Source of the DNA: Octopus sinensis | Taxonomy: Eukaryota | Direction of reading: 5' to 3' | Assembly (NCBI RefSeq): GCF_006345805.1 | Contig: NC_043011.1 | Location: 61,082,464-61,146,463, forward strand | Length of the DNA stretch: 64,000 nt | Shown here: in pieces, positions 9,608 to 64,000 of the stretch | Position numbering within the stretch: position 1 is the stretch's first letter | Layout: every line of letters starts with the position of its first letter | Position numbers and translations under genes: made by a program | The notes under the pieces: model-generated | Told to the model about the DNA's origin: nothing | The model's database searches: none | Seen by the model: the letters and a program-made list of their open reading frames with translations, nothing else

Positions 9608-9810
9608 TGTAACCACGTATAAACCGTTGGCGATTGTTTTTCCCTCGTCTTCCATTTCTATTGGACTTTCCTCTGTCTCCTGTTTCTGAAGAAGAGCTTT
9701 GCTCGGAACGTAAAATCACCTTTCTTTCCTTCCCTGAGCGTCTGCTAATACTTTACATGTACCACGTCCTCACGTTGTTGTTTTTATGTTTGTTCTTTGT
9801 TTTTTTTATA
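9608..9810 (+). mobile_element. Short non-coding repeat family I with a degenerate minimal hammerhead core (9682-9716)
   Basis: Similar to 17120-17305, 18077-18262 and 33865-34063. Contains GTTT-CTGAAGA-AGAGC TTT GCTC-GGAAC-GTA-AAAT (GAAA mutated to GGAA). Confidence 0.65.
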
Positions 9811-10688: not shown

Positions 10689-10689
10689 G

Positions 10690-10832
10690 ACAAATTAAAC
10701 TTAAATGTTGAAGTGAATCGAACGGCTTTTGTGTGTTTCTTAAATGGCTTATAAACACCTTCACGCTGCAATTGTTTTCGTTTCAGCACACGATCTCAGA
10801 TCAAATTACTTGCTATGCGAGTACATCTCCGT

Positions 10833-10836
<4 letters not shown>
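10690..10836 (+). mobile_element. Short repeat family C fragment inside (TA)n
   Basis: 10690-10771 is the reverse complement of 34089-34172. Both copies end in ACTTGCTATGCGAGTACATCTCCGTAATA next to (TA)n. Confidence 0.7.
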
Positions 10837-11384: not shown

Positions 11385-12550
11385 AAATCCTTAAATCCTT
11401 AAAAATGTTTTAGCCCGAAGGCCGCGGCCATGCTGGGGCACCACCGCTGAATGAGCTACACTAGTTTGTGAATCCACCTCTGATACGTGGCACTTGATCA
11501 ACAAGGGAGTTCGATGCTGCTGCCCGCATCCGTGTCTCCTGTCGTGAGGTAGGTTCATCTGGGACTCCCAACAAGAAGAGATCCAGTTTAGTTTTAAAGA
11601 AACCCACATCCACACCATGTAAGTCTCTCAGGCATTTAGGGAGTATGTTAAGAGCTGTGGTCCTCTGAAACCCAAGCTGTTGCAGTATCTGGACCTGTAT
11701 TTTGATGGTGATGTTGGAATCCTTGGCACCACGCAGCGGCGCCCCGTTCTGCGGTTGGAGTAACTTTGAATGCCAAAGTTTGGGACAAGACCCTCCAGGA
11801 TTTTCCAGATGTATATCACTGCATATCTCTCCCGCCTCCGCTCCAGGGAGAAGAGGTTTAATACCTTCAGTCTTTCCCAGTAGCTGACATTTTGCATTGA
11901 GACGATTTTCTTTGTGTAGCTTCTCTGAGTTGCTTCGAGTTCTGCTGTTTGTTTTATATTGTGGTGGTGACCAAAGTTGGGAGCAGTAGTCCAAGCGGCT
12001 GAGGACAAATGTTTTCCATAGGACCATCAGTGTCTCCTTCTCTCTTGTTCTGAAAGTTCGGAGAATCCATCCAGCTAGCCGTCTGCATTTTATCACCAGA
12101 TTAGCAATATGCATTTGGAAAGATGCATCATTGCTCATGTCAATGCCCAGGTCACGCACTGATTTTGACTCAGGGATTGCAATTCTTCCTGGGCCAGTGT
12201 ATCCAGTCTTCACGTCATTTACCTTTGTGTGCCAGTAGCGCAGGGCCTGGAACTTACCTGCATTAAACTGCATGTTGTTGTCCTCAGCCCACCTGTATAT
12301 TGTGTCCAGCTCATGTTGTAGATGCGCAATATTTTCAGGTTTTGTATTGCGTGGGAGACTTTTGTGTCATCTGCATAGCTAGCAAGGGTGGTCATCGTAG
12401 CAACTGAAGGCATGTCTGAAAGGGCCACTATGAACATCAGTGGCCCCAAGACAGTGCCCTGTGGGACACCGCTTGTTATTTGCGTTTCCCTGGAGGTGGC
12501 TCCATTGCTCACAACTGCCTGTTTTCTGTCTTTTAGGAAGTTGTGCAGAT
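11385..12550 (-). mobile_element. 5'-truncated CR1/L2-group LINE (RT domain, C-terminus, 3' UTR) inserted in (TA)n
   Basis: SGVPQGTVLGPLMF, SYADDTK, VRDLGI, GWILRTF, SRLDYCSQLWSP, LFSLERRRERY spread over frameshifted ORFs. Tail (AAGGATTT)x2. Both ends flanked by (TA)n. Confidence 0.93.
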
Positions 12551-12556
12551 AAATAC

Positions 12557-12589
<33 letters not shown>

Positions 12590-12594
12590 AATAC

Positions 12595-12639
<45 letters not shown>

Positions 12640-12644
12640 AATAC

Positions 12645-12686
<42 letters not shown>

Positions 12687-17092: not shown

Positions 17093-17198
17093 GTGTATAT
17101 ATATATAATATAATATATACATTCAAAATGTGACCGCGTGTGTACCGTTGGCGATTTTTTCCTCCGTCTTCTCTTCTTTGAATCTTTCCTTTTCCTAT

Positions 17199-17233
17199 GT
17201 TTCTGACGAAGAGCTCCACTCGAAACGTTAAAT
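17199..17233 (+). ncRNA. Minimal type I hammerhead ribozyme motif (family I)
   Basis: GTTT-CTGACGA-A-GAG CTCCA CTC-GAAAC-GTT-AAAT: intact core, short stems I and II, palindromic AACGTT stem III. Confidence 0.65.
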
Positions 17234-17504
17234 CCTCCTCTTTCTTTCTTTCCTTTCCCGAGTGTCCATACCACCATACTTATTCCACGTCCTCGCGTTC
17301 TTGTATGAATGTATGTACGTATGTACATGTGGGTGTATGTGTGTGTATGTGTGTGTGTGTTAGATATACATTGTAAGCTCGCCCACACTTTGCTTGGCTA
17401 GAGTAATAATTGAAATCTTGATGATGGTAATGCTGATGATAATACTGATGATACTACTACTGCTACTACTACTGCTACTACTACTGCTACTACTACTGCT
17501 TCTT

Positions 17505-17564
<60 letters not shown>

Positions 17565-17888
17565 GAATAATGAAACAAAGAGTTCCTAAAAGTTATCTGC
17601 GCATGAAGAAAAAAATTCAGAGACACATTATAAAAAATAACGTAGATAATAATTTGTAACTGCCAAAATCAGGAGATGTGAATTATTTTGTCTAGCCATA
17701 GAATATATTTGATAGTTTTTGATATTTGACAATGTTTATAGAATATCCTAGGGCTGATAACAGGAATCAGAACACAACGAATGTGATATCAATAAAGTGA
17801 GAGAAGAGAAGACACTATAAAACCACGATAACAATGTTATATATGATAATATGAAAAGACTCGTTGAATCAGTATCAGCATAAAATAA

Positions 17889-18046: not shown

Positions 18047-18155
18047 GTGTATATATATATATATATTATATATATACATTCAAAATGTGACCGCGTGTGT
18101 ACCGTTGGCGATTTTTTCCTCCGTCTTCTCTTCTTTGAATCTTTCCTTTTCCTAT

Positions 18156-18190
18156 GTTTCTGACGAAGAGCTCCACTCGAAACGTTAAAT
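18156..18190 (+). ncRNA. Minimal type I hammerhead ribozyme motif (duplicate of 17199-17233)
   Basis: Identical sequence in the second unit of the tandem duplication. Confidence 0.65.
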
Positions 18191-18477
18191 CCTCCTTCTT
18201 TCTTTCTTTCCTTTCCCGAGTGTCCAATACCACCATACTTATTCCACGTCCTCACGTTCTTGTATGAATGTATGTACGTATGTACATGTGGGTGTATGTG
18301 TGTGTATGTGCGTGTGTGTGTGTGTGTGTGTGTTAGATATACATTGTAAGCTCGCCCACACTTTGCTTGGCTAGAGTAATAATTGAAATCTTGATGATGG
18401 TAATGCTGATGATAATACTGATGATACTACTACTGCTACTACTACTGCTACTACTACTGCTACTACTACTGCTTCTT

Positions 18478-18525
<48 letters not shown>

Positions 18526-18847
18526 GAATAATGAAACAAAGAGTTCCTAAAAGTTATCTGCGCATGAAGAAAAAAATTCAGAGACACATTATAAAAAATA
18601 ACGTAGATAATAATTTGTAACTGCCAAAATCAGGAGATGTGAATTATTTTGTCTAGCCATAGAATATATTTGATAGTTTTTGATATTTGACAATGTTATA
18701 GAATATCCTAGGGCTGATAACAGGAATCAGAACACAACGAATGTGATATCAATAAAGTGAGAGAAGAGAAGACACTATAAAACCACGATAACAATGTTAT
18801 ATATGATAATATGAAAAGACTCGTTGAATCAGTATCAGCATAAAATA

Positions 18848-19008
<161 letters not shown>

Positions 19009-19542
19009 ATATATATATACATACTTATAGGTTTTGTGCAAATTGTAGTAGTATCAAACACACCCATACCTATATTATACACGTACACATGTACAAATAT
19101 ATACACATGTATGCAAGCACACATATACATTCATATATTATACTACATTTATAGCTAGGCATACACATACAGTGAGGACTCATGTATACACACATAATTT
19201 TAGAGTTGATAACCACTGATAGGTTTCTGTAGGAATATAACAGTATAGAGAAATTTACATAGACGCTTATGCTCACACACATAGATAAGCACATACACAT
19301 ACTTAATCACACGCTCGCACACGTACACATACACATAGAGAAATGTAGAGAGACATTTTTGTGTATGTCTACAGAATACATGCGCAGGTGTGGCTGTGTG
19401 GTAAGAAGTTTGATTTCCGACCACATGGTTCGGAGACCAGTCCCACTGCGTTGCACCTTGGGCATGTGTCTTTTACTATAGCCTCGAGCCAACAAAAGCC
19501 TTGTAAGTAGATTTGGTAGACGGAAATTGAAAGAAGCCCGTC

Positions 19543-19620
<78 letters not shown>

Positions 19621-19622
<2 letters not shown>

Positions 19623-20166
19623 TTTAACAATTAAGGATAACCTCTTAATAAGGAATCTTAACAAGAAATTATCAGGTAGTTAGCGTGAAAAACCTCATAA
19701 AAGTAAAGAATTCGAAAATAATGTTTTCCTTTTGAACAAATTAATCATATCTATATTGTATAGAGGGCATTATTACACATAAATGCCTCACACTAAGAGG
19801 GACAAAGTCATTACTACCAAAATTACACTAATCATACCTAAATGCAGTTCTTCAAAGCAAGACATATAAAAAATGAATTTAGTTCTGTATCACCGTGATT
19901 TCACATTTAACTTACGTCTATGATCATCAGCAGAACTGATTCTGAACACATCATAAATAAACCACCAACCTTACCTAGCGAAGACGAATAGACATCTATT
20001 CACTCCGGCCAAGCACATGGAATGTTTATAAATCATATATCCGGTAAATGGCGGGCTTTTTCGAACTGCATGTCGGATAAGAAAAGTATTTCGGAATAAG
20101 TTTAACAATGACTTTGTCCCTCTTAGTGTGAGGCATTTATGTGTAATAATGCCCTCTATACAATAT
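19621..20166 (-). mobile_element. Hammerhead-containing non-coding element family A (retrozyme-like): ~478-nt unit plus a 60-bp inverted arm
   Basis: AGTTTAACAAT at both 19621 and 20099. 20107-20166 is the reverse complement of 19753-19812. Second copy at 47077-47520. Flanked by (TA)n. Confidence 0.8.
19881..19937 (-). ncRNA. Type I hammerhead ribozyme
   Basis: Minus strand: AGTTCTG-CTGATGA-TCATAGAC GTAA GTTAAATGT-GAAA-TCAC G GTGA-TA-CAGAACT. 7-bp stem I, intact core, near-palindromic stem III, AUA cleavage triplet. Confidence 0.85.
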
Positions 20167-20189
20167 TAATATATATATATGTATATGAA

Positions 20190-22302: not shown

Positions 22303-22678
22303 AATCAGATTTAGGATTGAATCCAATTTTATAGTAAAATATTATATTATATTAAATTAGAGATAAAACCACTATTAGGCAAATCATACAATGAAAAACT
22401 CAAGCCAATACATAAGATTAATTAATTTATATTATTTTAAATATATATCAATCGTAGTGTTATACTAATTATCTTTTTTTTAATAATTTTGATATATATT
22501 TAAAATAATATAAATTAATTAATCTTATGTATTGGCTTGAGTTTTTCATTGTTTGATTTGCCTAATAGTGGTTTTATCTCTAATTTAATATAATATAATA
22601 TTTTACTATAAAATTGGATTCAATCCTAAATCTGATTTTCCCCTGTAAGTTTGGATTTATTCCCTAATATTTTATTAT
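22303..22678. mobile_element. Fold-back insertion of a Penelope-like element terminus in (TA)n
   Basis: Arms 22303-22451 and 22489-22637 are near-perfect inverted repeats. The sequence is similar to the PLE terminus at 58735-58882 (TTTTACTATAAAATTGGATT.AATCCTAAATCTGATTTT..CCCTGTAA.TTTGGAT.TATTCCCTAATATT). Confidence 0.85.
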
Positions 22679-22729: not shown

Positions 22730-22925
22730 TATAGTTGGAATTTATAGAAAGACGAAAGACGAAGATAGGTGTATGAACAACAAGCAAGTATTTAGTTTGA
22801 CGCTCGGGAAAATGAAAAATGTTTTTTACATTTCGAGCCTAAGCTCTTCAGCAGAACAGAATAAGAGAAAATAAACAGAGAGAGAATGAAAAAAACTTGT
22901 AGATTTCAGCGCTCCTGCATGGCGA
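22730..22925 (-). mobile_element. Short repeat related to family I with a decayed hammerhead-like core
   Basis: Minus strand CTGCTGAAGAGCTTAGGCTCGAAATGTAAAA. Similar copies at 31065-31300 and 47570-47715. Confidence 0.55.
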
Positions 22926-26164: not shown

Positions 26165-26495
26165 ATTTTTTTTGGATTTGGTTTGCAAGATTCTTTATTT
26201 GGGTTCGTGTGTTGAAGTATATTCTGTTGCGTCTGGCGAGAGTCATTTTCTTTTTGTGCCTTATGATTCTCACCGGTAAAATTTCCACTTATTTCTTATT
26301 TTTATTTTCCTAAAATTTTCGGTGCGTCTTGCAACCTTTTCAATAGTCTTGAGTCAAGACTATTGAAAAGGTTGCAAGACGCACCAAAAATTTTAGGAAA
26401 ATAAAAATAAGAAATAAGTGGAAATTTTACCGGTGAGTGTGTTATATTATAAGGCCCAAAAAGAAAATGACTCTCCCCAGACAGGACAGAATGCT
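26165..26495. repeat. Large palindrome (fold-back element family D) centred at 26353
   Basis: 84-bp arms 26269-26352 and 26354-26437 with one mismatch and a 1-nt spacer, extending imperfectly to ~26221/26492. Related single-arm copies at ~5430-5555 and ~36290-36420. Confidence 0.9.
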
Positions 26496-30854: not shown

Positions 30855-31299
30855 CACTCATCTGACTACGGCCATGCTGGGGCACCGCCTTTAGTCGAAT
30901 AAATTATTATTTTTTGTAACCTTAGTACTTATTCTAACGGTTACTTTTGCCGAGTCGCTATGTTACAGGGACGTAACCACACCAACATCGTTTGCCAACC
31001 CATGGTGGGGGGACAAACACAGACTCACAAATACATACATACATACATACGTACATATATATATGCCATGTTGGACCGTTAGCTCCTACATGCATTTTTC
31101 TCTCCTTGTTTCTCTCCTTGTTTCTTTTCTTTGTAGCTTTCTGTCGAAGAGCGTAGGCTCGAAATGTAAAAGACTTGTTTTATTTCTATTCCTAAGCGCT
31201 ATACTAATACATTTGTTTGTTTGTTCTACACCTGCCTTCGTCTTTTGTTTATTTTCGTAAACCTGCCTTCGTCTTTTGTTTATTTCGTATAACCTTCCC

Positions 31300-31374
<75 letters not shown>

Positions 31375-31517
31375 CGAGCTTCTTTCAGTTTCCATTTACC
31401 AAATCCACTTACAAGGCTTTGGTCGGCCCGAGAATGCTGGCGTCACGTAGTGGGACTGAACCCCAAACTATGTAGTTGAAAAGGAAGCTTCTTACCACAC
31501 AGCCACTCCTGCCTCTA
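30855..31517 (-). mobile_element. SINE family 2 split by a family-I-related element (31065-31300) in its internal microsatellite
   Basis: 3' half at 30855-31030 and 5' half at 31372-31517 match 43895-44287. Confidence 0.75.
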
Positions 31518-31672
31518 TTGAGAAGATAACATGCCACATGGCTTTGATTTCATTATCTAATAAGAGAAGAGATTTCACATTGCACTTATTAAATGATTAC
31601 GTCCCTACGTGACGTTGTATAAAATCTTCCAATGAAATCTTGACACGTATTCTCTTCGACATTTACTTCTTT

Positions 31673-33865: not shown

Positions 33866-34063
33866 TCTTTTCAACATATAACCGCGTGTATATAGTTGGC
33901 GATTTCTTCCTCCGTCTTCACTTCCTTTGGACTTTCCGCTATTTCTGAAAAAAAAAAGCTTTCCTCGAAACATTAAATCCTCTTTCCTTCTTTTCCTGAG
34001 CGTCTGATAATACAGTAATTGTACCACGTCCTCGCGTTATTGTTTTTTCTTTGTTTGGATTCA
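33865..34063 (+). mobile_element. Family I copy with decayed core, between (TA)n tracts
   Basis: ACCGCGTGT...GTTGGCGATTT...CCTCCGTCTT...CCACGTCCTCGCGTT, as in 17120-17305. Confidence 0.7.
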
Positions 34064-34088
34064 ATATATATATATATATATATATATA

Positions 34089-34261
34089 GTTGCAGCGTGG
34101 AAGGTGTTTGTAAGCTATTTAAGAAACACACAAAAGCCGTTCGATTCACTTCAACAGTTAAGTTTAATTTGTCAAAATATTTTCGTCGCTAAAATCCGCG
34201 ACCTGTTCACTGACAAAAATCCGTGGTGCATCACTTGCTATGCGAGTACATCTCCGTAATA
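34089..34261. mobile_element. Family C element with two diverging arms and a variant hammerhead-like fold (34168-34217, minus)
   Basis: Left part is inverted relative to 10690-10771 and the right end is collinear with 10808-10836. Minus strand TTTGTCA-GTGAACAG-GTCGC..GCGAC-GAAA-ATATTT-TGACAAA. Confidence 0.65.
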
Positions 34262-35978: not shown

Positions 35979-36275
35979 AATAGTAAAGAATAAAAAGGTT
36001 TGAATGGTACCACAAAGCACTATAATAGAAAAACAATGGGCAATACAAAAACCTGTTGTAATTTATCATTCATAGTCTGATAATATTTCGGAATAAAGTT
36101 TCTAAGAATATCTAAAGAAGGAATTTTATTACGAAATATCATATCAGACAATGGATGACTAAATTACAACAGGAATATAGCTCATTGTCTGTTTTATAGT
36201 GCATTGTTGTACCATTCAAAACTTTTTATTCTTTACAAACAATACACAATGCTTCAAGCAAACTACAATACTCTC
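35979..36275. mobile_element. Fold-back element family E with a decayed hammerhead-like core (36108-36144)
   Basis: ~35982-36095 is an imperfect inverted copy of ~36125-36236. Second copy at ~52435-52588. Inferred consensus ATAT-CTGAAGA-AGGAAT ATT ATTCC-GAAA-TA-TC. Confidence 0.6.
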
Positions 36276-40603: not shown

Positions 40604-40636
<33 letters not shown>

Positions 40637-40638
<2 letters not shown>

Positions 40639-40990
40639 GGCGCAGGAGTGGCTGTGTGATAAGAAGCCTGGTTCCGGGTTCAGTCCCACTGCATGGCATC
40701 TTGGGCAAGTGTCTTCTGCTATAACCTCAGGCTGACCAAAGCCCTGTGAGTGGATTTGGCAACTGGAAACTGATAGAAGCCTGTCGTGTGTATATATATA
40801 TATGTGTGTGTGTTTGTGTTTGTTTGTTCCACCACCATCACCTGACAACCGATGTTGGTGTGTTTACGTCCCCGTAGCTTATCGAGAATACGTACTAGAC
40901 TTATAAAGAATAACTCCTGGGGTCGATTTGTTCGACTAAAGCCGGTGCTCCAGTATGGTCGCAGTCAAATGACTGAAACAAGCAAAATAA
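40637..40990 (+). mobile_element. SINE family 2 (tRNA head, CORE-like segment, internal TA/TG microsatellite, LINE-like tail)
   Basis: AGGCGCAGGAGTGGCTGTGTG...GGGTTCAGTCCC...CTTGGGCAAGTG...GGTGCTCCAGTATGGTCGCAGTCAAATGACTGAAACA. Confidence 0.85.
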
Positions 40991-43894: not shown

Positions 43895-44287
43895 CCTTTT
43901 ACTCCTCTACTCTTTTACTTGTTTCAGTCATTTGACTGTGGCCATGCTGGAGCAGCGCCTTTAGTTGAGCAAATTGACCCCAGGTCTTATTCTTTGTAAG
44001 CCTAGTACTTATTCTATCGGTCGAACGGCTAAGTTATGGGGACGTAAACACACCAGCATTGGTTGTCAAGCGATGTTGGGCTGACAAACAGAGACACACA
44101 AACGTATACACACACATATAAATATACATACGGGCTTCTTTCAGTTTCCATCAACCAAATCCATGCATAAGGCTGTCGTCGGCCCGAGGCTATAGTAGAA
44201 GGCACTGCCCAAGGTGCCACGCAGTAGGACTGAACCCGGAACCATGTGGTCAGTAAACAACCCAATTACAACACAGCCACTGCTCTA
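43895..44287 (-). mobile_element. SINE family 2 copy
   Basis: Reverse-complement match to 40637-40990. Confidence 0.85.
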
Positions 44288-45566: not shown

Positions 45567-45647
45567 TGTATATAGTTTATATATGTGTGCGTGTATATAT
45601 ATATTGTGTGTGTCTGCGTGTTATATAATATGTGTTGTGTGTGTGTG

Positions 45648-45747
45648 NNNNNNNNNNNNNNNNNNNNNNNNNNNNNNNNNNNNNNNNNNNNNNNNNNNNN
45701 NNNNNNNNNNNNNNNNNNNNNNNNNNNNNNNNNNNNNNNNNNNNNNN
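45648..45747. other. Assembly gap (100 N)
   Basis: Run of N. Confidence 1.
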
Positions 45748-46987: not shown

Positions 46988-47076
46988 ATACACACACACA
47001 CATACATTTAAACTTTCATATATATATATTATATATATATATAATATATATAGATATATATAATATATATATATAT

Positions 47077-47520
47077 TTAACAATTAAGGATACCTCTTAA
47101 TAAGGGATCTTAACAAGAAATTATCAGGTAGTTAAGATCCCTTATGAAGAGGTTATCCTTAATTGTTAAATTTATTCCGAAATACTTTTCCTACATGCAG
47201 TTCGAAAAAGCCCGCCATTTACCGAATATATGATTTATAAACATTCCATGTGCTTGGCCGGAGTGAATAGATGTCTGTTCGCCTTCGCTAGGTAAGGTTG
47301 GTGGTTTATTTATGATGTATTCAGAATCAGTTCTGCTGAGGATCATAAGACGTAAGTTAAATGTGAAATCACGGTGATACAGAACTAAATTCATTTTTTA
47401 AATGTCTTGCTTTGAAGAACTGCATTTAGGTATGATTAGTGTAATTTTTGGTAGTAATGACTTTTCCCTCTTAGTGTGAGGCATTTATGTGTATAATGCC
47501 CTCTATACAATTATAGATAT
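47077..47520 (+). mobile_element. Second copy of family A (short inverted arm 47077-47133, then sense arm)
   Basis: 47171-47518 is the reverse complement of ~19748-20098. 47131-47170 is inverted to 47077-47115. Flanked by (TA)n. Confidence 0.82.
47329..47386 (+). ncRNA. Type I hammerhead ribozyme
   Basis: AGTTCTG-CTGAGGA-TCATAAGAC GTAA GTTAAATGT-GAAA-TCAC G GTGA-TA-CAGAACT. Within the core it differs from 19881-19937 only at the free N7 position; also a 1-nt indel in stem II. Confidence 0.85.
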
Positions 47521-47739
47521 ATATATATATATATATATAATACACCACACATATATATGATACATCGCTAGCCATTAAACCTTTCTATTTTCTCTCCTTG
47601 TTTCTTTCTGTGTTCCTTTCTTTTGAAGCGCATAGGATCGAAACGTAAAAGAATACCTTACTTCCGAGTGTAAAATAATACATCTGTAAATTCTCACCAT
47701 ATTTACACACCACCGTATATATATATATATATATATAAT

Positions 47740-51629: not shown

Positions 51630-52605
51630 TTATATATGTATGCATATATATATATACATATACATATACATATGTATATACATACATATATATGTATATA
51701 TATATGTGTGTGTATATGTGTGTGGACGTATATATGTACGTATGTATATATGAATATACAGGAGTGAGTGGCCAAAAGAATGGAAAGAGTTCTCACGCAT
51801 TTAATAAGTGTCACTTGTATTATTTAAAACACTTTGGTGTGCCTCAAATTATCGCTGACCGATGAAAGAAGCCCGTCCCTTGCAGGTTTTAGATTATCAA
51901 ATCTAAGACATGAAGGAGACGGGCTTCTTTTTGACGCCCTCGAAACTTCAGTTCGCAAGGAGCCGAATCGAACTTTCATATAATGCACACACACACTGAT
52001 ATGGGATATTTCTTTAGAAATATGACAGAGTAGAAAATTCGTCTACCCTCAGAATTACCCGGTACTCTACGGTAGCATTATTATATACTTCTATATTTAT
52101 GTTTGGGTATTCGTCGTGTGTGAATGTAAAATTGAAGAAATTGGAGTCAAGAAAACTGTTTGTTTGCATAATAAAATGTAGTTGTGTTTCCTCAGTGGAT
52201 ATTCAAGTGTTGTGTCCGTTAGTTTAAAATCTTCGAATTCCAGGCCTTCCCCAACCGTCCTGCTTCGAATTTTGTAACTACGGATGTACCAGCACACACG
52301 AAATTGAGACATGGCCGACCTCACACACTTCTCATAAGGAATTCCGGAAGAAGCATCGTGCGACCACTGCTGAGACGCTTCTAAAAAATAGAAAAGAAAA
52401 GCCGTTAGAAAACCGATTATAGCAGCGACTCCATCTAAGAATATCGGAAGAAGGAATATTATTCTGAAATATCAGACTATGGACGACTAAATTACAACAG
52501 GTATATAGCCCATTGTCTGTACTGTACCATTCAAAACTTTTTTCTTTACAAACAATGCACAATGCTTCAAGCAAATTACAGTACTCTCATATATATATAT
52601 ATATA

Positions 52606-52960
52606 TTCTCTTTTACTATCTTTTACTTGTTTCAGTCATTTGACTGCGGCCATGCTGGAGCACCGCCTTTAATCGAGCAACTCGACCCCGGGACTTATTC
52701 TTTTGTAAGCCCAGTACTTATTCTATCGGTCTCTTTTGCCGAACCACTAAGTAACTGGGACATAAGCACATCAGGATCGGTTGTCAAGCAATGCTAGGGG
52801 GACAAATACAGACACACAAACACACACATATACATATACATATATACGACGGGCCCGAGGCTATAGTAGAAGACACTTGCCCAAAGTGCCACGCAGTGGG
52901 ACTGAACCCGGAAACCATGTGGTTGGTAAACAAGCTACTTACCATACAGTCACTCCTGCG

Positions 52961-52963
<3 letters not shown>
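52606..52963 (-). mobile_element. SINE family 2 copy
   Basis: Reverse-complement match to 40637-40990, with a small internal deletion. Confidence 0.85.
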
Positions 52964-53000
<37 letters not shown>

Positions 53001-53196
53001 GTTGAAATATATATAATATATATAATAAATATTAGGAATATATCCAAATTTACAGGGAAAAAAATCAGATTTAGGATTAAATCCAATTTTATAGTAAAAT
53101 ATTATAAAATATTATTGAGACAAAACCATATTTTGCAAAACAAACAAGGAAAGACTTAATCAATACATAAAATTTAATAAATAGTCAAAAAAACCG

Positions 53197-53238
53197 CCAC
53201 TACAATCGTTCTTGTCTTGATCGACAATCTTCAGGTGG
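53197..53238 (-). ncRNA. Hammerhead ribozyme, inverted copy of 58665-58707
   Basis: Same sequence but GAAAC reads GAAC (1-nt homopolymer loss: mutation or sequencing error). Confidence 0.7.
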
Positions 53239-54981
53239 ACTTCCAATCTAAAAAATCAAAATTTTAAAATATAAAAATAATACTTTTAAATAATTAAAGT
53301 ATAAATGAAAAAATATAAGATATAATCCATATATAAACCTATATTAATCCATATCGAAAATATAGACTAATTACCACGAATTCCCTAAAAAAACCATAAT
53401 AAAACAAAACTCTTAAAAACACATATAACGATAAAATCTCCCTTTGCTAAACCTATAACAAACTTAAAGTAACCCCCCTAACCTAAACATCACACACCAA
53501 ATACACACGTAAACCACAGACTCACGACTTATACACATACCTATACTAACTTATAAACCTCAATATACACCAAACCCACTCCCTCCCACACACAGACAAA
53601 TTAACACATACATCCCAAAACCTAAATAACAAACCCATATACACATTCACACCACAAAACACACACTCACACGCAAAAACACTCACACACAAAAGATACA
53701 TATACTCCTCACATATACGCCTATACATACTCACTAAACTCGACATATACAACAATACTTACACACCCACAAAAACCATTATATACATTTATGAGCTTTA
53801 ACTCACCTTAGCATCTCTAACAAACAACTTGCAGTAACCCAATCCCATTCTCTATGCCTACCTCACTACTACACTATTCCATTCACATTCCAAGCAACGC
53901 TAGTCCACCACCCGGTTATTCACGTGGCAAAACGAACACCACTCAAAAATTGTGAATGAAACAATGTAAAAAAATAACCAACACCTAAAATAGACAAAAT
54001 ACCACAAATTACCTAAAAAAACCATGATAAACCAAAACTCATAAAAGCATATAACGATAAAATCTCCCTTTGCTAAACCCTATAACAAACTTATATAGCA
54101 ATCCCCTAACCTAAACATTCACACACAAAAAAACCCACACGTAAACCACAGACCCAAGACTTATACACAAACCTATACTAACTTATAAACCTCAATATAA
54201 CCAAAAACCACTCCCTCCCCACACAGACAATTAACACATACATCCCAAATCCTAAATAACAAACCCAAATACACATTCACACACAAACACACACACACAC
54301 AAAACACATACACAACAGATACATATGCTCCCTCACATATACGCATATACATACTCACTAAAACTCGATATATACAACAATATTTACACCCCACTCATAC
54401 AGATAAATAAATTAATTATACAATTAAAAACTCACAACCAATCTCATATACATAAACACTCTTATGAAAACAACAATAAATACATCGTAATTAACCAGAA
54501 TATCAAAAATAACATTATGACATAAGGATAATCAAATACATACTTACAATTCAGTTACAAATTATGAAGTGAAATTAGATTTTTAGCCGTTAAAAACCAA
54601 ACAAAATTACGTTACCATGGAAATAACTATGTAAAAAAAGAATACGCGCCATAGAAAGTAAACGTCATTCATAGTATGAATGGAGAAATATAATAAATGG
54701 AACTAAAAAACTATTTCCACGTAGCAAACCAACGCTACTTAAAAAAAATTATTATGAATGGATTCTTTAAAAACTATCATGAAAAATCAATTATATACAT
54801 TTATGAGCTTTAGCTCACCCTAGCAACTCTAACAAACAACTTACAGTAACCCATACTCAATACCTACCTCATTACCACCCTAATCCATTCACAATTCCAA
54901 ACAACACTAGTCCACCACACGGTTACAATTCCCAACTCTACCCATTCATTCATAATTTCAACGACGTTCCCTTCAACAACT

Positions 54982-55395
54982 CTAATCTAATTTATATAAG
55001 TTCCTTGTTTTATCAGATTGTACTATAATACTATCCATATTTCTCATATCTTTAATTTTAATTGCTAAATTCCTTAAATATTCATTATTTCTATTTGGGT
55101 ATTTATGGAATTCAATATTTTTTACCACCTTCCATATACTATCTTCAAGTAATTGTAATTCTTTATTAAATGGAGGTTCCTTTCTAGATTTAAATTTAGA
55201 GGTATAATTATCATTCCTACTATCAATATCATTAAATAAATAAAAATTATAGTAAAAAGCTTTCCATTTAATTCTAGAAATAAAATCTTTAACATTATTA
55301 ACAAGTTTCAAGATAAATTCCTTTCTAGAAGGAATAGGAATATCTTTCAAAGATGAATCCCAAAACAGCGGTTCTATCTTACCTGTAAAATCCAT
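54982..55395 (-). pseudogene. N-terminal fragment of the Penelope-like ORF (inverted, truncated by deletion)
   Basis: MDFTGK...SSLKDIPIPSRKEFILKL...FISRIKWKAF...VQSDKTRNLYKL. The DKT motif precedes the PLE RT core. Confidence 0.85.
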
Positions 55396-55419
55396 AATTT
55401 GCGAAATTGAGGTATTACA

Positions 55420-55870
55420 GTAGAGATAAATCTAATTGTATATTAAATAATAATTGTGATATTAACGATGTAGTGTATAAATGTATAGTTACATTACATG
55501 ATAATAACTTTAAGAATAATAATTACAATAAAGCGGTTTATATAGGTTCTACTTCCTCAAAAATAAAACTAAGAATTGCACAACATATGAATTCTTTTAA
55601 AAATAAAAACTTAATCAACTCAACCGGACTTAGTAAGTATATTTGGAGTCTTAAATCACTAAATATTAATTATAGTTTAATATGGGAAATAATTTGTAAA
55701 ACTAAATCATATAATATAGGAGCTAATTGTTGTTATTATGCTCTATATAATGAGTTTAAAGAAATTTTATTTTATAAGTATGATAATTTACTTAATACTG
55801 GGGAGGAGCGCAAAATAAAATGTAGACACAAGTTACTTACTTATATAATAAGTTTCATGATAAATAGCAA
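55420..55870 (+). pseudogene. GIY-YIG endonuclease part of the 5'-truncated upstream PLE copy
   Basis: DVVYKC...VYIGST...RIAQH..SF...STGLSKYIW...WEII...KCRH. Confidence 0.88.
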
Positions 55871-56051
55871 TAATAGTTCCCTTTTAGGTTATTTTAGTTT
55901 AAATTAGTTTAGATGATATATTTTGGTTATGTTGTCTAGGATTTAATTATAGTTAGTCTTTATTGATATTTCTTTGTTTTAATTAGTTCATTTTAATGTA
56001 TATTAATTTAGCAGTTTATGGTACGTTAAAAACTTTAATAATTTATATTAG

Positions 56052-56084
<33 letters not shown>

Positions 56085-58664
56085 TTTTTTATTATGTATT
56101 TTTATTTTGCATTTGTTATATGTATTTTGAGGATATATTTATATGTTTTGGGTGTTATTAGTGGTGTTTTTATTGAGTTTTGTATGTATGTGTGAATGTT
56201 TAAGATCCCTTTTGTTTTTGTTTTTTATTTTATTTGTAGGTTGAATTGACAGATTTTATTTGGGTATTGTCTTTTATAATAAAGTACACACCCATAACAA
56301 TTATAAGTGCCCACTTCATTCGTTGTACATGGGTTTGCATGTGAGCCTCAGCATATGCACTAACGGCCACTCCAGCCCCACATGGATAAATAAACACATA
56401 CATCCCCAACCACCATCACAATGAAACCACACCCATACAATGACAAAACTCCCCCATACCCTATTTACACCTACATAGTAATCCAATATATTCTTCCATA
56501 CATGGACGCAAGTGCGTGAAGCACATGAACATAATTAGTACGTACAACCCCTAATACACACTAATATATACGTATCAAGCTCGACCTCCACAGTGATAAG
56601 TTTACACACAATCACACCCAGATGGGTGAATTGCACAACCAGTGAATGCTCACACATACGGGCGCGATTACATTGTTGCATATATCGAGCCAAAATTGTA
56701 TGCATATGTACATGTGAGGGGTACACGTAAATAAATGAAGTGAGCGTGTACCCCCTGTATTTATACCCGTGCGTGAATATACACATGGAGACTACCACAC
56801 AGGTACAAATGTGTTTAGAAATGGGAGCCCCATCACTACACTTAATGTATACTCTCACCCATCCGCACGGATGTGTAAGTGTATCTCCGGTGTATATGTT
56901 GAGGCTTATATGTAGAGTTGTTGAAGGGAACGTCGTTGAAATTATGAATGAATGGGTAGAGTTGGAATTGTAACCGTGTGGTGGACTAGTGTTGTTTGGA
57001 ATTGTGAATGGATTAGGGTGGTAATGAGGTAGGTATTGAGTATGGGTTACTGTAAGTTGTTTGTTAGAGTTGCTAGGTTGAGCTAAAGCTCATAAATGTA
57101 TATAACTGATTTTTCATGATAGTTTTTAAAGAATCCATTCATAATAATTTTTTTTAAGTAGCGTTGGTTTGCTACGTGGAAATAGTTTTTAGTTCCATTT
57201 ATTATATTTCTCCATTCATACTATGAATGACGTTTACTTTCTATGGCGCGTATTCTTTTTTTACATTAGTTATTTCCATGGTAACGTAATTTTGTTTGGT
57301 TTTTTAACGGCTAAAAATCTAATTTCACTTCATAATTTGTAACTGAATTGTAAGTATGTATTTGATTTATCCTTATGTCATAATGTTATTTTTGATATTC
57401 TGGTTAATTACGATGTATTTATTGTTGTTTTCATAAGAGTGTTTATGTATATGAGATTGGTTGTGAGTTTTTAATTGTATAATTAATTTATTTATCTGTA
57501 TGAGTGTGTGGGTGTAAATATTGTTGTATATATCGAGTTTTAGTGAGTATGTATATGCGTATATGTGAGGGAGCATATGTATCTGTGTGTATGTGGTGTT
57601 TGTGTGTGTGTGTGTTTGTGTGTGAATGTGTATTTGGGTTTGTTATTTAGGATTTGGGATGTATGTGTTAATTTGTCTGTGTGGGGAGGGAGTGGTTTTT
57701 GGTGTATATTGAGGTTTATAAGTTAGTATAGGTTTGTGTATAAGTCTTGGGTCTGTGGTTTACGTGTGGGTTTTTTGTGTGTGAATGTTTAGGTTAGGGG
57801 GATTGCTATATAAGTTTGTTATAGGGTTTAGCAAAGGAGATTTTATCGTTATATGCTTTTATGAGTTTTGGTTTATCATGGTTTTTTTAGGTAATTTGTG
57901 GTATTTTGTCTATTTTAGGTGTTGGTTATTTTTTACATTGTTTCATTCATAATTTTTGAGTGGTGTTCGTTTTGCCACGTGAATAACCGGGTGGTGGACT
58001 AGCGTTGCTTGGAATGTGAATGGAATAGTGTAGTAGTGAGGTAGGCATAGAGAATGGGATTGGGTTACTGCAAGTTGTTTGTTAGAGATGCTAAGGTGAG
58101 TTAAAGCTCATAAATGTATATAATGGTTTTTGTGGGTGTGTAAGTATTGTTGTATATGTCGAGTTTAGTGAGTATGTATAGGCGTATATGTGAGGGAGTA
58201 TATGTATCTTTTGTGTGTGAGTGTTTTGCGTGTGAGTGTGTGTTTTGTGTGTGAATGTGTATATGGGTTTGTTATTTAGGTTTTGGGATGTATGTGTTAA
58301 TTTGTCTGTGTGGGGGGAGGGAGTGGGTTTTGGTGTATATGAGGTTTATAAGTTAGTATAGGTATGTGTATAAGTCGTGAGTCTGTGGTTACGTGTGTGT
58401 ATTTGTGTGTGAATGTTTAGGTTAGGGGGTTTACTTTATAGGTTTGTTATAGAGTTTAGCAAAGGGAGATTTTATCGTTTATGTTTTTAGAGTTTTGTTT
58501 TATCATGGTTTTTTTAGGGAATTCGTGGTAATTAGTCTATATTTTCGATATGGATTATATATAGGTTATATATGGATTATATACTTATATTTTTTCATTT
58601 ATACTTTAATTATTTAAAAGTATTATTTTTATATTTTAAAATTTTGATTTTTTAGATTGGAAGT

Positions 58665-58707
58665 CCACCTGAAGATTGTCGATCAAGACAAGAAACGATT
58701 GTAGTGG
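58665..58707 (+). ncRNA. Type I hammerhead ribozyme in the PLE terminal repeat
   Basis: CCAC-CTGAAGA-TTGTC GATCAA GACAA-GAAAC-GATT-GTA-GTGG: canonical core and all three stems. Predicted cleavage after 58703, ~235 nt upstream of the ORF ATG. Confidence 0.9.
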
Positions 58708-58937
58708 CGGTTTTTTTGACTATTTATTAAATTTTATGTATTGATTAAGTCTTTCCTTGTTTGTTTTGCAAAATAGTGGTTTTGTCTCAAATAATATTTT
58801 ATAATATTTTACTATAAAATTGGATTTAATCCTAAATCTGATTTTTTTTCCCTGTAAATTTGGATATATTCCCTAATATTAATTTATATAATATTGATAA
58901 TTTTGTATATTGAGTGTAATACCTCAATTCGCAAATT

Positions 58938-61441
58938 ATGGATTTTACAGGTAAGATAGAACCGCTGTTTTGGGATTCATCTTTGAAAGATATTCCTATT
59001 CCTTCTAGAAAGAATTTATCTTGAAACTTGTTAATAATGTTAAAGATTTTATTTCTAGAATTAAATGGAAAGCTTTTTACTATAATTTTATTTATTTAAT
59101 GATATTGATAGTAGGAATGATAATTATACCTCTAAATTTAAATCTAGAAAGGAACCTCCATTTAATAAAGAATTACAATACTTGAAGATAGTATATGGAA
59201 GGTGGTAAAAAATATTGAATTCCATAAATACCCAAATAGAAATAATGAATATTTAAGGAATTAGCAATTAAAATAAAGATATGAGAAATATGGATAGTAT
59301 TATAGTACAATCTGATAAAACAAGGAACTTATATAAATTAGATGTTAAATTATATGAAAACTTTTAGGGAAAGAAATAATTAAAAAATATAAAATTGTTC
59401 CAGATGATATTCTTTATAATATTAATAAGGCCTCTAAAGTAGTAATGTTAAAATATGAGTTGGATAATAAAACTGAACCTTATGTACCTCTGCACCCCAG
59501 AATTACTCTTAAAGACCATAAAGATAATTTTTATTCAGACCCTAAAGTTAGATTAATTTGCCATGTAAATCGGACCTAGGTAAATTAAGTAAATTTATTT
59601 TAGATAAATATATTGATAAGTTAAATAAACTTAATTATTTAAAATTATGGTTTAGTAATAATAATACATTGAAATGGTTTAATAATATTAAAGATAAAAA
59701 TCGTTATAAATTTATTCAAATAGATATAGATAATTATTATTCTTCTATTAATGAAATTGTGTTTAATAAAGCGCTTATTTTCGCAATGAATAAAGTGGGC
59801 ATGTCACGGGAAGAAGTTAATGTAATTAAATTGGCTAGGAAATCGCTAATTAAATATAAAAATAAATTATGGGCTAGGAATGATACTAGAGATGTTTTGA
59901 TATACCTATGGGAGCACCAGATTCTGCACAGGCTACTGATTTAGTAGGTATTTTTCTTTTATCTGAACTCCAATTAGAAAATCTTAAGATAGAGGGTGGT
60001 TTATATAGAGACGATCTTCTACTAGTTACAAAGAATTGTACTAATAGGAATCTAGAAGTATATAAGAAAAAACTATATAGTTTCTTTAAAAGATATGGTT
60101 TACGTATTACTATATATAAGGAGAATTATAATGTTAATTATTTAGATGTTAATTTTAATCTTATTACAGGTAAAACACAACCATTTCATAAACTTAATGA
60201 GAACCTTAGATATATAAATGTAATAGTAATCACCCATTTTCTATTAAAAAATCGTTGATTAATAATATAAGTAAACGTATTTCATTACTCTCTTATGATA
60301 TAGAGATTTTTAATAAACATGCTAATTTTATAATGAGGCCCTTAGAGGGGCAGGTTATAATAAGAATATTAAATTTTATAATATTAGCGATAATGATTTA
60401 AATGATAATTTTCGAGATACTTCTAATAATAATTATAATTTTGTTACGTTTAGTGGTAAAAATAATAGATATTAAAAAAAAATAATAAAAATGATAAAAA
60501 TATAAATAAGAATAATAATAATAATAAAATAATAATAATAATATAAATAAGAATAATATAAATAAAAATAAATTTAATAATTATTATAATAATTATATTG
60601 ATAAATTTAATAATATTAATAATTCCTTAAATGCTGTACATAGATATAATTCTGATAATAATTTTAATAAAATAAAGAATTATAAATATATTATAATAAT
60701 GATAATAATAATAAGGTTAATAAGAATAAAATTTGGTTAATAGTTCCTTATGGAGATCAAGTTAAAACGAATATTATTAAAGAGATTTTAGATGTTATAG
60801 AACTATTTATTAGAGATAATCGTAAATATAGGAACATTTTCTCTTTTAATAATTTTGGAGTTGGTTACTCTACCACTAATAATGTTGGTAACATTATTTC
60901 TTTCTTCATTTAATAAATATAAACTGAATAATTTTTATAAAAAGAATATTTGATAATAATATTAATAATGATAAGACTTATATTAATTGTACATGTAGAG
61001 ATAAATCTAATTGTATATTAAATAATAATTGTGATATTAACGATGATGTAGGGTATAAATGTATAGTTACATTACATGATAATAACTTTAAGAATAATAA
61101 TTACAATAAAGCGGTTTATATAGGTTCTACTTCCTCAAAAATAAAACTAAGAATTGCACAACATATGAATTCTTTTAAAAATAAAAACTTAATCAACTCA
61201 ACCGGACTTAGTAAGTATATTTGGAGTCTTAAATCACTAAATATTAATTATAGTTTAATATGGGAAATATTTGTAAAACTAAATCATATAATATAGGAGC
61301 TAATTGTTGTTATTTATGCTCTAATGAGTTTAAGAAATTTTATTTTATAAGTATGATAATTTACTTAATACTGGGGAGGAGCGCAAAATAAAATGTAGAC
61401 ACAAGTTACTTTACTTATATAATAAGTTTCATGATAAATAG
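58938..61441 (+). CDS. Penelope-like polyprotein: reverse transcriptase + Asn-rich linker + Cys-rich GIY-YIG endonuclease (frameshifted as assembled)
   Basis: SLKDIPIPS, DKT, TLKDHK..F...PKVRLI, IDIDNYYSSI, MGAPDSA..DLVG, GLYRDDLL, VNYLDV, NCTC...C...C, VYIGST, CYLC..E, CRH. Reading is broken mainly by single-base indels. Confidence 0.85.
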
Positions 61442-64000
61442 CAATAATAGTTCCCTTTTAGGTTATTTTAGTTTAAATTAGTTTAGATGATATATTTTTG
61501 GTTATGTTGTCTAGGATTTAATTATAGTTAGTCTTTATTGATATTTCTTTGTTTTAATTAGTTCATTTTTAATGTATATTAATTTAGCAGTTTATGGTAC
61601 GTTAAAACTTTAATAATTTATATTAGATTTTTTATTTTTATTTTTATTTTTATTTTTATTTATTTTATTTTATTATGTATTTTTATTTTGCATTTGTTAT
61701 ATGTATTTTGAGGATATATTTATATGTTTTGGGTGTTATTTAGTGGTGTTTTTATTGAGTTTTGTATGTATGTGTGAATGTTTAAGATCCCTTTTGTTTT
61801 TTGTTTTTTATTTTTATTTGTAGGTTGAATTGACAGATTTTATTTGGGTATTGTCTTTTATAATAAAGTACACACCCATAACAATTATAAGTGCCCACTT
61901 CATTCGTTGTACATGGGTTTGCATGTGAGCCTCAGCATATGCACCTAACGGCCACTCCAGCCCCACATGGATAAATAAACACATACATCCCCAACCACCA
62001 TCACAAATGAAACCCACACCCATACAATGACAAAACTCCCCCATACCCTATTTACACCTACATAGTAATCCCAATATATTCTTCCATACATGGACGCAAG
62101 TGCGTGAAGCACATGAACATAATTAGTACGTACAACCCCTAATACACACTAATATATACGTATCAAGCTCGACTCCACAGTGATAAGTTTACACACAATC
62201 ACACCCAGATGGGTGAATTGCACAACCAGTGAATGCTCACACATACGGGCGCGATTACATTGTTGCATATATCGAGCCAAAATTGTATGCATATGTACAT
62301 GTGAGGGGTACACGTAAATGAAGTGAGCGTGTACCCCCTGTATTTATACCCGTGCGTGAATATACACATGGAGACTACCACACAGGTACAATGTGTTTAG
62401 AAATGGGAGCCCCATCACTACACTTAATGTATACTCTCACCCATCCGCACGGATGTGTAAGTGTATCTCCGGTGTATATGTTGAGGCTTATATGTAGAGT
62501 TGTTGAAGGGAACGTCGTTGAAATTATGAATGAATGGGTAGAGTTGGAATTGTAACCGTGTGGTGGACTAGTGTTGTTTGGAATTGTGAATGGATTAGGG
62601 TGGTAATGAGGTAGGTATTGAGTATGGGTTACTGTAAGTTGTTTGTTAGAGTTGCTAGGGTGAGCTAAAGCTCATAAATGTATATAATTGATTTTTCATG
62701 ATAGTTTTTAAAGAATCCATTCATAATAAATTTTTTTAAGTAGCGTTGGTTTGCTACGTGGAAATAGTTTTTAGTTCCATTTATTATATTTCTCCATTCA
62801 TACTATGAATGACGTTTACTTTCTATGGCGCGTATTTTTTTTACATTAGTTATTTCCATGGTAACGTAATTTTGTTTGGTTTTTTAACGGCTAAAAATCT
62901 AATTTCACTTCATATTTGTAACTGAATTGTAAGTATGTATTTGATTTATCCTTATGTCATAATGTTATTTTTGATATTCTGGTTAATTACGATGTATTTA
63001 TTGTTGTTTTCATAAGAGTGTTTATGTATATGAGATTGGTTGTGAGTTTTTAATTGTATAATTAATTTATTTATCTGTATGAGTGTGGGTGTAAATATTG
63101 TGTATATATCGAGTTTTAGTGAGTATGTATATGCGTATATGTGAGGAGCATATGTATCTGTTGTGTATGTGTGTTTGTGTGTGTGTGTGTTGGTTGTGTG
63201 GAATGTGTATTTGGGTGTTATTTAGGATTTGGGATGTATGTGTTAATTTGTCTGTGTGGGGAGGGAGTGGTTTTTGGTGTATATTGAGGTTTATAAGTTA
63301 GTATAGGTTTGTGTATAAGTCTTGGGTCTGTGGTTTACGTGTGGGTTTTTTGTGTGTGAATGTTTAGGTTAGGGGGATTGCTATATAAGTTTGTTATAGG
63401 GTTTAGCAAAGGGAGATTTTATCGTTATATGCTTTTATGAGTTTTGGTTTATCATGGTTTTTTAGGTAATTTGTGGTTTTGTTGTCTATTTTAGGTGTTG
63501 GTTATTTTTTACATTGTTTCATTCATAATTTTTGAGTGGTGTTCGTTTTGCCACGTGAATAACCGGGTGGTGGACTAGCGTTGCTTGGAATGTGAATGGA
63601 ATAGTGTAGTAGTGAGGTAGGCATAGAGAATGGGATTGGGTTACTGCAAGTTGTTTGTTAGAGATGCTAAGGTGAGTTAAAGCTCATAAATGTATATAAT
63701 GGTTTTTGTGGGTGTGTAAGTATTGTTGTATATGTCGAGTTTAGTGAGTATGTATAGGCGTATATGTGAGGGAGTATATGTATCTTTTGTGTGTGAGTGT
63801 TTTGCGTGTGAGTGTGTGTTTTGTGTGTGAATGTGTGTATGGGTTTGTTATTTAGGTTTTGGGATGTATGTGTTAATTTGTCTGTGTGGGGAGGGAGTGG
63901 GTTTTGGTGTATATGAGGTTTATAAGTTAGTATAGGTATGTGTATAAGTCGTGAGTCTGTGGTTTACGTGTGTGTATTTGTGTGTGAATGTTTAGGTTAG

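Follow-up and report, generated by a model that had tools for sequence, protein, structure and literature searches.

Inverted two-site insertions of a 478-nt non-coding unit with a predicted hammerhead in (TA)n arrays of Octopus sinensis

Two inverted insertions between (TA)n arrays

A 64-kb stretch of Octopus sinensis DNA (64,000 nt, called the window below) contains two insertions of one repeat family, family A, which share their outer ends but switch strand at different internal points. What kind of element is inserted in this way, and how could its two head-to-head arms have been made? The original prediction proposed that both target strands prime reverse transcription at two preferred sites on the RNA, in a twin-priming-like manner. 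The two copies and their parts are located as follows.

19546-19617: (TA)n target array, left flank of copy 1 (TRF row 19546-19620)
19618-20166: copy 1 of family A, between (TA)n arrays
19618-20109, minus strand: long arm of copy 1, the 478-nt unit plus 14 nt (same 14-mer at 19618 and 20096, direct repeat spacing 478); 3' end at site 2
19618-19754, minus strand: interval between site 1 and site 2, the ~132-137-nt equivalent of a "tail", with a strong hairpin just before site 2 (z = -2.73, 2/200 shuffles)
20107-20109: inversion junction of copy 1, 3-nt microhomology (P of at least 3 nt = 0.066 for random joins)
20107-20166, plus strand: short inverted arm of copy 1, unit positions 298-357; 3' end at site 1; inverted repeat with 19747-19812 (97%)
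20167-20185: short (TA)n, right flank of copy 1 (from the sequence)
47018-47074: (TA)n target array, left flank of copy 2 (TRF row 47018-47076)
47075-47511, or to 47520 with a 1-nt insertion: copy 2 of family A, between (TA)n arrays
47075-47134, minus strand: short inverted arm of copy 2, unit positions ~428-487; 3' end at site 2 (the distal, "tail" end); 96.7% match to 19623-19682
47131-47134: inversion junction of copy 2, 4-nt microhomology (P of at least 4 nt = 0.022 for random joins)
47131-47520, plus strand: long arm of copy 2, unit positions 448-478 and then 1-355/363, crossing the unit junction; 3' end at site 1 (47511, or 47520 with the 1-nt insertion)
47521-47542: (TA)n target array, right flank of copy 2 (from the sequence)

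It turned out that the two insertions and their different strand-switch points are real, both by self-BLAST and by counts of a 16-mer from the left end and a 14-mer from the right end; a search of the window found no third copy. The left 16-mer has three matches in the window (19623 plus, 47076 plus and 47155 minus; the second starts at 47076, not at 47077 as first given), against a chance mean of 0.26, and three matches were reached in 0 of 100 shuffles. The right 14-mer has three exact matches (19755 minus, 20151 plus and 47498 plus), with a chance mean of 0.51 when up to 2 mismatches are allowed and three matches reached in 1 of 100 shuffles. All matches of both words are confined to the two family A loci.

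The strand switch lies about 490 nt from the left end in copy 1 and about 55-58 nt in copy 2, and self-BLAST puts the inversion points, predicted at about 490 and 55 nt, at 20107-20109 and 47131-47134. Copy 1 consists of a 492-nt minus arm and a 60-nt plus arm, and copy 2 of a minus arm of about 58 nt and a plus arm of about 385 nt. The long arms are 95% identical by self-BLAST, and the copies overall are about 95% identical (about 5% diverged). In the long arm of copy 2, 47131-47170 is the reverse complement of 19623-19662, and 47162-47520 is the reverse complement of 19747-20109 at 95%. The joint chance of the 3-nt and 4-nt junction microhomologies is about 0.002.

As for the outer ends, the claim that they are shared holds to within 4-8 nt; they are near-identical, not identical. 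The left ends are about 4 nt apart, and the right ends 2 nt, or about 6 nt if copy 2 reaches 47520. The chance of both ends agreeing within 6 nt on a 478-nt unit is 0.0015 under uniform placement and 0.0026 when only AT-ending positions are considered. All outer ends (4 of 4) adjoin (TA)n arrays, which make up about 6% of the window, and 1-4 AT bases are common to the ends and the target. The window as a whole is microsatellite-rich, animal-type DNA with 167 tandem-repeat rows in TRF. As to target-site duplication, an interruption motif to the right of each copy recurs in the left array of the same copy, the two motifs being common ones that are found in 6 and 23 of 54 TA arrays. Fixed outer ends, variable junctions and junction microhomology, the features that the original prediction had asked for, are thus all found in the two window copies. 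Shared flanks, which it had named as the counter-case, are not: in all four flank pairings the unique flanks of copies 1 and 2 give simple-repeat matches only, and since these flanks are unrelated the copies are not a segmental duplication.

A closed 478-nt unit and its hammerhead-like motif

The nature of the element had been missed at first: it is a closed 478-nt non-coding unit with a hammerhead-like motif. The long arm of copy 1 has an identical 14-mer at its start and end, 478 nt apart, and in the long arm of copy 2 the first 40 nt equal the site-2 end of the copy 1 arm and are followed by about 350 nt straight into the unit. The unit is closed because the two copies jointly cover every adjacency. 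Its GC content is 33%, and stop-free frames on either strand of a tandem dimer reach 45 codons at most, so that family A lacks the single ORF with reverse transcriptase (RT) and GIY-YIG that marks an autonomous EN+ Penelope-like element (PLE). Two other marks of PLEs are present: partial tandem, more-than-unit length is seen in both copies (copy 1 is 478+14 nt, and copy 2 crosses the unit boundary), and an inverted 5'-truncated arm is found in 2 of 2 copies. As to the PLE tail of 30-40 bp at one end only, both copies have a one-sided extension, but its length is 132-137 nt. At the same time a short, low-GC, non-coding unit with a predicted type I hammerhead-like motif is what characterizes a retrozyme. 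No tandem array with at least two ribozyme-bearing units occurs in the window, each insertion having one ribozyme motif; the head-to-tail boundary is present in family A, and arrays may lie elsewhere.

The motif and the fold around it were predicted at these positions.

19881-19937, minus strand: type I hammerhead-like motif of copy 1, predicted cut after 19888 (descriptor scan)
47329-47386, plus strand: type I hammerhead-like motif of copy 2, predicted cut after 47379 (descriptor scan)
47165-47462, plus strand: predicted ~300-nt rod-like fold around the hammerhead, unit positions 4-303, with a 32-nt inverted pair 47190-47221/47399-47430

In standard hammerhead numbering, the motif has a 7-bp stem I, an intact core, a stem II with a U-U base and a GNRA loop, and a near-palindromic stem III; the sole core difference between the copies is at the variable position N7, and besides this the motif differs by an insertion that is unpaired. 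A strict descriptor, drawn up after the motif had been seen, gave 2 matches in 64 kb, both in family A, and 0 in 30 block shuffles that preserve dinucleotides approximately; a looser descriptor gave 5 matches in the window versus a shuffle mean of 0.7. Rfam gave no match at the gathering threshold anywhere in the 64 kb. At E<=5 it gave no hammerhead in either family A copy, the only hits there being miRNA-hairpin and snoRNA chance matches far below gathering, of which the miRNA ones are due to the palindrome of copy 2. The 15-mer of the family A ribozyme does not occur in the supplement text of PMC8557442, in which long sequence runs are shortened.

In predicted stability, the active ribozyme fold falls 4-6 kcal/mol short of the local minimum-energy fold (-6.4/-7.7 versus -12.8/-11.7 kcal/mol), and the 101-nt ribozyme region is no more stable than shuffled sequence (z about 0). 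The whole monomer on the ribozyme strand is more stable than its shuffles (z = -4.65, 0 of 100 shuffles), and folded as a circle this strand reaches -116.5 versus -79.9 kcal/mol for the opposite strand. Eight substitutions separate the two copies, of which 3 keep predicted pairs, 2 break pairs and 3 are unpaired, with none compensatory. PLE ribozymes typically show weak monomer activity (PMC4209133), and an axolotl retrozyme ribozyme, also with weak monomer activity, is described as having U-U at its helix II base (PMC7229834).

Both outer ends of both copies are 3' ends on the hammerhead strand. The motif, independently of the arms, marks this strand as the RNA strand, which bears out the earlier reading of the outer ends as 3' ends of sense arms, on the same strand for both. 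Site 1 lies 133-141 nt and site 2 lies 265-270 nt past the predicted hammerhead cut, with 132-137 nt between them. In each insertion one end lies at site 1 and the other at site 2; the long arm has its start at site 2 for copy 1 and at site 1 for copy 2. Since both long arms read through the predicted ribozyme cut site, the template was not a cleaved linear monomer. Along the unit, the long arms of both copies begin within about 45 nt of the unit boundary. That the synthesis of both would have stopped within about 45 nt of the upstream site 2 hints, with two copies, at a block or an RNA end near it.

The small hairpin that is predicted around site 1 has a CAA loop. That a hairpin regularly precedes the start sites was rejected as a rule, the local folds there ranking no better than the top 9-37% of positions. 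The copy 1 junction joins unit positions 1-3 and 298-300 (20107-20109 and 19807-19812), which face each other at the base of the predicted RNA rod with an offset of about 6 nt. From this one case, it is possible that RNA structure guides the stop or the switch at the junction of copy 1.

Proposed insertion mechanism and rival explanations

In the PLE literature, insertions are described as having an inverted 5'-truncated copy and a tail at one end (PMC8557442, PMC3846280, PMC8969392), with a (TA)n bias (PMC8557442, PMC3846280). EN+ PLEs (Penelope/Poseidon, Neptune, Nematis and Hydra, with Naiad for insertion anatomy) have 5'-truncated copies of more-than-unit length, as in family A (PMC8557442, PMC3846280), and they also share with it the inverted 5'-truncated arm, the extension at one end, a type I hammerhead near the 3' end and (TA)n targets. 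Unlike them, family A has no ORF, a unit of 478 nt and an extension of about 135 nt versus 30-40 nt.

The closest biochemical parallel is PAc (Poseidon of Anolis carolinensis), a lizard PLE whose purified protein was reported in 2024 to nick and extend both strands of AT-rich DNA in vitro (PMC11167929). In that work, reverse transcription starts at two internal sites which mark the limits of the genomic tail, the protein is a predicted dimer and the main substrate is uncleaved RNA. PAc thus resembles family A in its two fixed start sites downstream of the hammerhead, the use of both target strands, an AT-rich target and a template uncut at the ribozyme, and the predicted CAA-loop hairpin of site 1 recalls the AC-rich stem-loop of PAc. 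It differs in that its sites lie inside the ORF start and 30-40 nt apart, whereas the family A sites are read from sequence; formation of an inverted junction is not described for PAc in the accessible text of PMC11167929.

Two other systems share part of this anatomy. Metazoan non-LTR retrozymes are short, low-GC, non-coding structured units with one type I hammerhead and a proposed PLE dependence, like family A (PMC7229834; bioRxiv 10.64898/2026.07.22.740005), and they have been tied to PLE pLTRs (bioRxiv 10.64898/2026.07.22.740005); family A is larger than the typical retrozyme monomer of about 300 bp and is seen in the window as dispersed inverted insertions of about one unit, not arrays. 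In L1 twin or dual priming, both target strands prime and head-to-head arms are joined by short microhomology, as in family A (PMC2837659); unlike L1, family A has no poly(A), both of its start sites are fixed and internal, and its arms overlap on the unit.

Taken together, family A is likely a non-autonomous PLE of the retrozyme type, a 478-nt non-coding unit with a predicted hammerhead that would be mobilised in trans by an endonuclease-bearing PLE protein. The twin-priming-like idea of the original prediction is largely right, in that fixed ends and variable junctions with 3-4 nt of microhomology fit the priming of both target strands at two preferred sites. It is no new rule: an inverted arm, a one-end tail, a hammerhead and (TA)n targets are the published PLE signature (PMC8557442, PMC3846280), and its core mechanism is already published for PLEs (PMC11167929).

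In the proposed mechanism, a more-than-unit family A RNA, either an uncleaved tandem transcript or a ligated circle, would be taken up by a PLE RT/GIY-YIG protein, probably a dimer, which would nick both strands of a (TA)n target. From one target 3'-OH, cDNA synthesis would begin at site 1, and from the other at site 2; both cDNAs would stop early, anneal by 3-4 nt at their 3' ends and be completed by fill-in. The product would be a head-to-head insertion with about 135 nt extra (the "tail") on the arm begun at site 2, which is the long arm in copy 1 and the short arm in copy 2. Copy 2 is as expected from a single tandem RNA with an overlap of 40 nt. Copy 1 agrees with a single tandem RNA and a gap of about 120 nt, with a circle copied for one lap plus 14 nt, or with two RNAs. 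The two copies are compatible with one RNA (twin priming) as well as with two (dual priming), which were likewise not told apart for L1 (PMC2837659). A bolder version, which we hold only tentatively and think rather unlikely, is that a dimeric PLE protein loads one 478-nt RNA circle and primes from both target strands, obligatorily once per site, 135 nt apart, and that the long arm of copy 1 is a full lap plus 14 nt which stopped at its own start. Circular templates for more-than-unit cDNA have been proposed before (PMC4209133, PMC7229834). If true, this circle reading would give direct genomic proof of the circle-to-DNA route proposed for animal retrozymes, and a one-site-per-end rule would underlie the PLE tail.

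Several rival explanations have to be weighed against a self-standing unit inserted by a PLE protein. Family A might be the pLTR and tail of an autonomous PLE outside the window, the apparent 478-nt circle coming from a parent locus with a site-2-ending copy and, after it, a copy truncated at the 5' end; insertion would work in the same way, and the unit would not be a self-standing family. Partial tandems are normal PLE structure (PMC8557442), the unit boundary coincides with site 2 as such an origin would lead one to expect, and both long arms start within about 45 nt of that boundary. However, the same boundary is present in two independent insertions about 5% diverged, which means that on at least two occasions the template that transposed was the closed unit itself, and neither copy has any coding sequence, so we consider this origin improbable. 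Twin priming of the L1 style by a LINE protein, with site 2 as the true transcript 3' end and site 1 as an AT-rich internal site pairing with the second target strand, would suit the head-to-head arms with junction microhomology (the twin-priming pattern; PMC2837659), the 1-4 AT bases held in common by ends and target, and the RTE/CR1-type RT fragments present in the window. We give it little credence, as family A ends in neither poly(A) nor a repeat tail, both copies have the same internal site (chance about 0.002-0.003) whereas an L1-type internal priming site is variable, the long arm of copy 2 starts at site 1 and contains site 2 internally, and the hammerhead and the (TA)n targeting indicate PLEs.

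It is very unlikely that the inversions are post-insertion DNA events (fold-back repair, or template switching in the microsatellite) or artefacts of long-read assembly. The arms of copy 2 are palindromic with a spacer of just 16 nt, and the window is indel-rich, with frameshifts in a neighbouring PLE. Yet a fold-back would copy the (TA)n flank, whereas the right arm runs into the next unit; the short arm of copy 2 has 47115-47130, which its long arm lacks, the two arms differ by 2 changes in 40 nt, and two other families of the window have the same anatomy. Snap-back self-priming was ruled out for copy 2, the arm of which continues into the next unit and not into the flank. Least credible of all is a segmental duplication that produced one copy from the other, or a DIRS-like or MITE-like nature of family A, with inverted termini that are fixed. 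The 95% identity and the inverted terminal segments would agree with this, but the unrelated flanks and the variable junction refute it for these two copies, and the inverted arms differ in identity and length between the copies, unlike fixed terminal repeats.

Other (TA)n-associated elements of the window

The window also holds a PLE of its own.

52998-64000, continuing past the window end: frameshifted PLE, putatively Hydra-type, ORF ~58938-61420, unit ~5.6 kb, with RT and GIY-YIG matches

Pieces of this resident PLE match two RT + GIY-YIG proteins of about 710 aa in tblastn (E down to 2e-38). One RT fragment gave no match in a word-index search, and an exhaustive search with the RT fragment gave 1098 database relatives; in Pfam, GIY-YIG was found in 1 of 5 fragments at E 6e-4, below the cutoff, and nothing was found for 4 of 4 full-length relatives. 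Its motifs are DKT, CxCX5C and CxH, with KWK replacing RWK, and by matching these to the clade description in PMC8557442 it appears to be of the Hydra type, a (TA)n-targeting, hammerhead-bearing clade there. The element is a partial tandem with an inverted arm and has a hammerhead-like motif at 58669-58703. Its tail is 38 nt, the spacing of its two sites, and its cut-to-site-1 distance is 139 nt, equal to the 133-141 nt of family A. No similarity was detected between family A and the pLTR of this PLE (87 of 100 shuffles score as high), and against the resident PLE and 6 other candidate regions of the window, hammerhead-bearing repeats included, 0 of 7 comparisons were above shuffles. The inverted arm of the resident PLE jumps from the ORF start (54985-55419) to the 3' UTR (54355-54984), with a junction at 55416-55419 of about 4 nt overlap. 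It also contains an asparagine-rich stretch at about 60400-60720, and its 3' UTR is strongly skewed and internally repetitive.

Two further families show inverted insertions. A short inverted (TA)n insertion at 22303-22670, about 83-85% like the pLTR end of the resident PLE, has two arms that face outward; one ends at site 1, and the other has a tail of about 40 nt, at the right end only, which is the canonical PLE pattern. In the third family (10689-10836 versus 34090-34261), inverted arms end against (TA)n at two sites about 87 nt apart, counted on the alignment; one copy is inverted with non-overlapping arms, and the other is plain 5'-truncated. Among the 34 segments of 80-1500 nt between TA arrays, 4 have an internal inverted repeat, namely the two family A copies, the element at 22.3 kb and an internal hairpin at 51865-51930 that falls short of the ends, and none of them has the same site at both ends. 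When the element at 10.7 kb, found by self-BLAST, is included, all inverted insertions with both ends visible (4 of 4) have a different site at each end. This has a chance of 1 in 16 under an independent 50:50 choice, with site 1 seen once each in the second and third families.

What is new, then, is a protein-free retrozyme-like unit with the full PLE insertion signature, with sites about 135 nt apart (usually 30-40) and one site per end in 4 of 4 inverted insertions, family A itself being known from two copies. In a literature search that covered few subscription papers, we found no earlier account in which a non-coding unit with a hammerhead has inverted two-site insertions, nor one of a tail above 100 nt. 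The origin of the inverted structures and one-ended tails of PLEs has been called unresolved (PMC8557442), and the mobilisation of animal retrozymes by PLEs has so far been argued from co-occurrence and pLTR similarity (PMC7229834; bioRxiv 10.64898/2026.07.22.740005). The start sites of family A are far enough apart to be scored copy by copy, which makes both questions countable in the genome, for instance whether the two ends of an insertion always use different sites and whether there is an excess of arms one lap long. The compact unit could also serve as a template for PLE assays in vitro.

Several other repeats of the window adjoin (TA)n. A dispersed repeat of about 180 nt lies at 9608-9776, 17120-17301, 18077-18260 and 33870-34043, with a minimal hammerhead-like core at 17203 and 18160 by the looser descriptor, and is probably another PLE pLTR family. 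In a second dispersed repeat (22752-22886 on the minus strand, 31110-31248 and 47589-47652) a hammerhead-like core is seen by eye; one piece is about 70 nt to the right of copy 2 and one just to the right of the element at 22.3 kb, a placement that suggests clustering in TA-rich targets. An abundant SINE-like repeat ending at (TA)n is found at 19376-19545, 31373-31518, 40636-40788, 44105-44284 and 52852-52967, and its first copy has as its tail the left TA array of copy 1. We take this repeat to resemble an octopus SINE.

The segments 17120-17888 and 18077-18848 form a near-perfect tandem duplication (period of about 960 nt, 98-100%), which is either a recent duplication or an assembly repeat, and the sole Ns of the window are a 100-N assembly gap at about 45645-45744. 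Long palindromes at 26221-26492, 35983-36236 and 51865-51930 are fold-back or MITE-like and do not have TA arrays at both arm ends. Besides, ORF fragments of a non-LTR reverse transcriptase, presumably RTE/CR1-like, lie at 1-675 and, on the minus strand, at 11461-12674.
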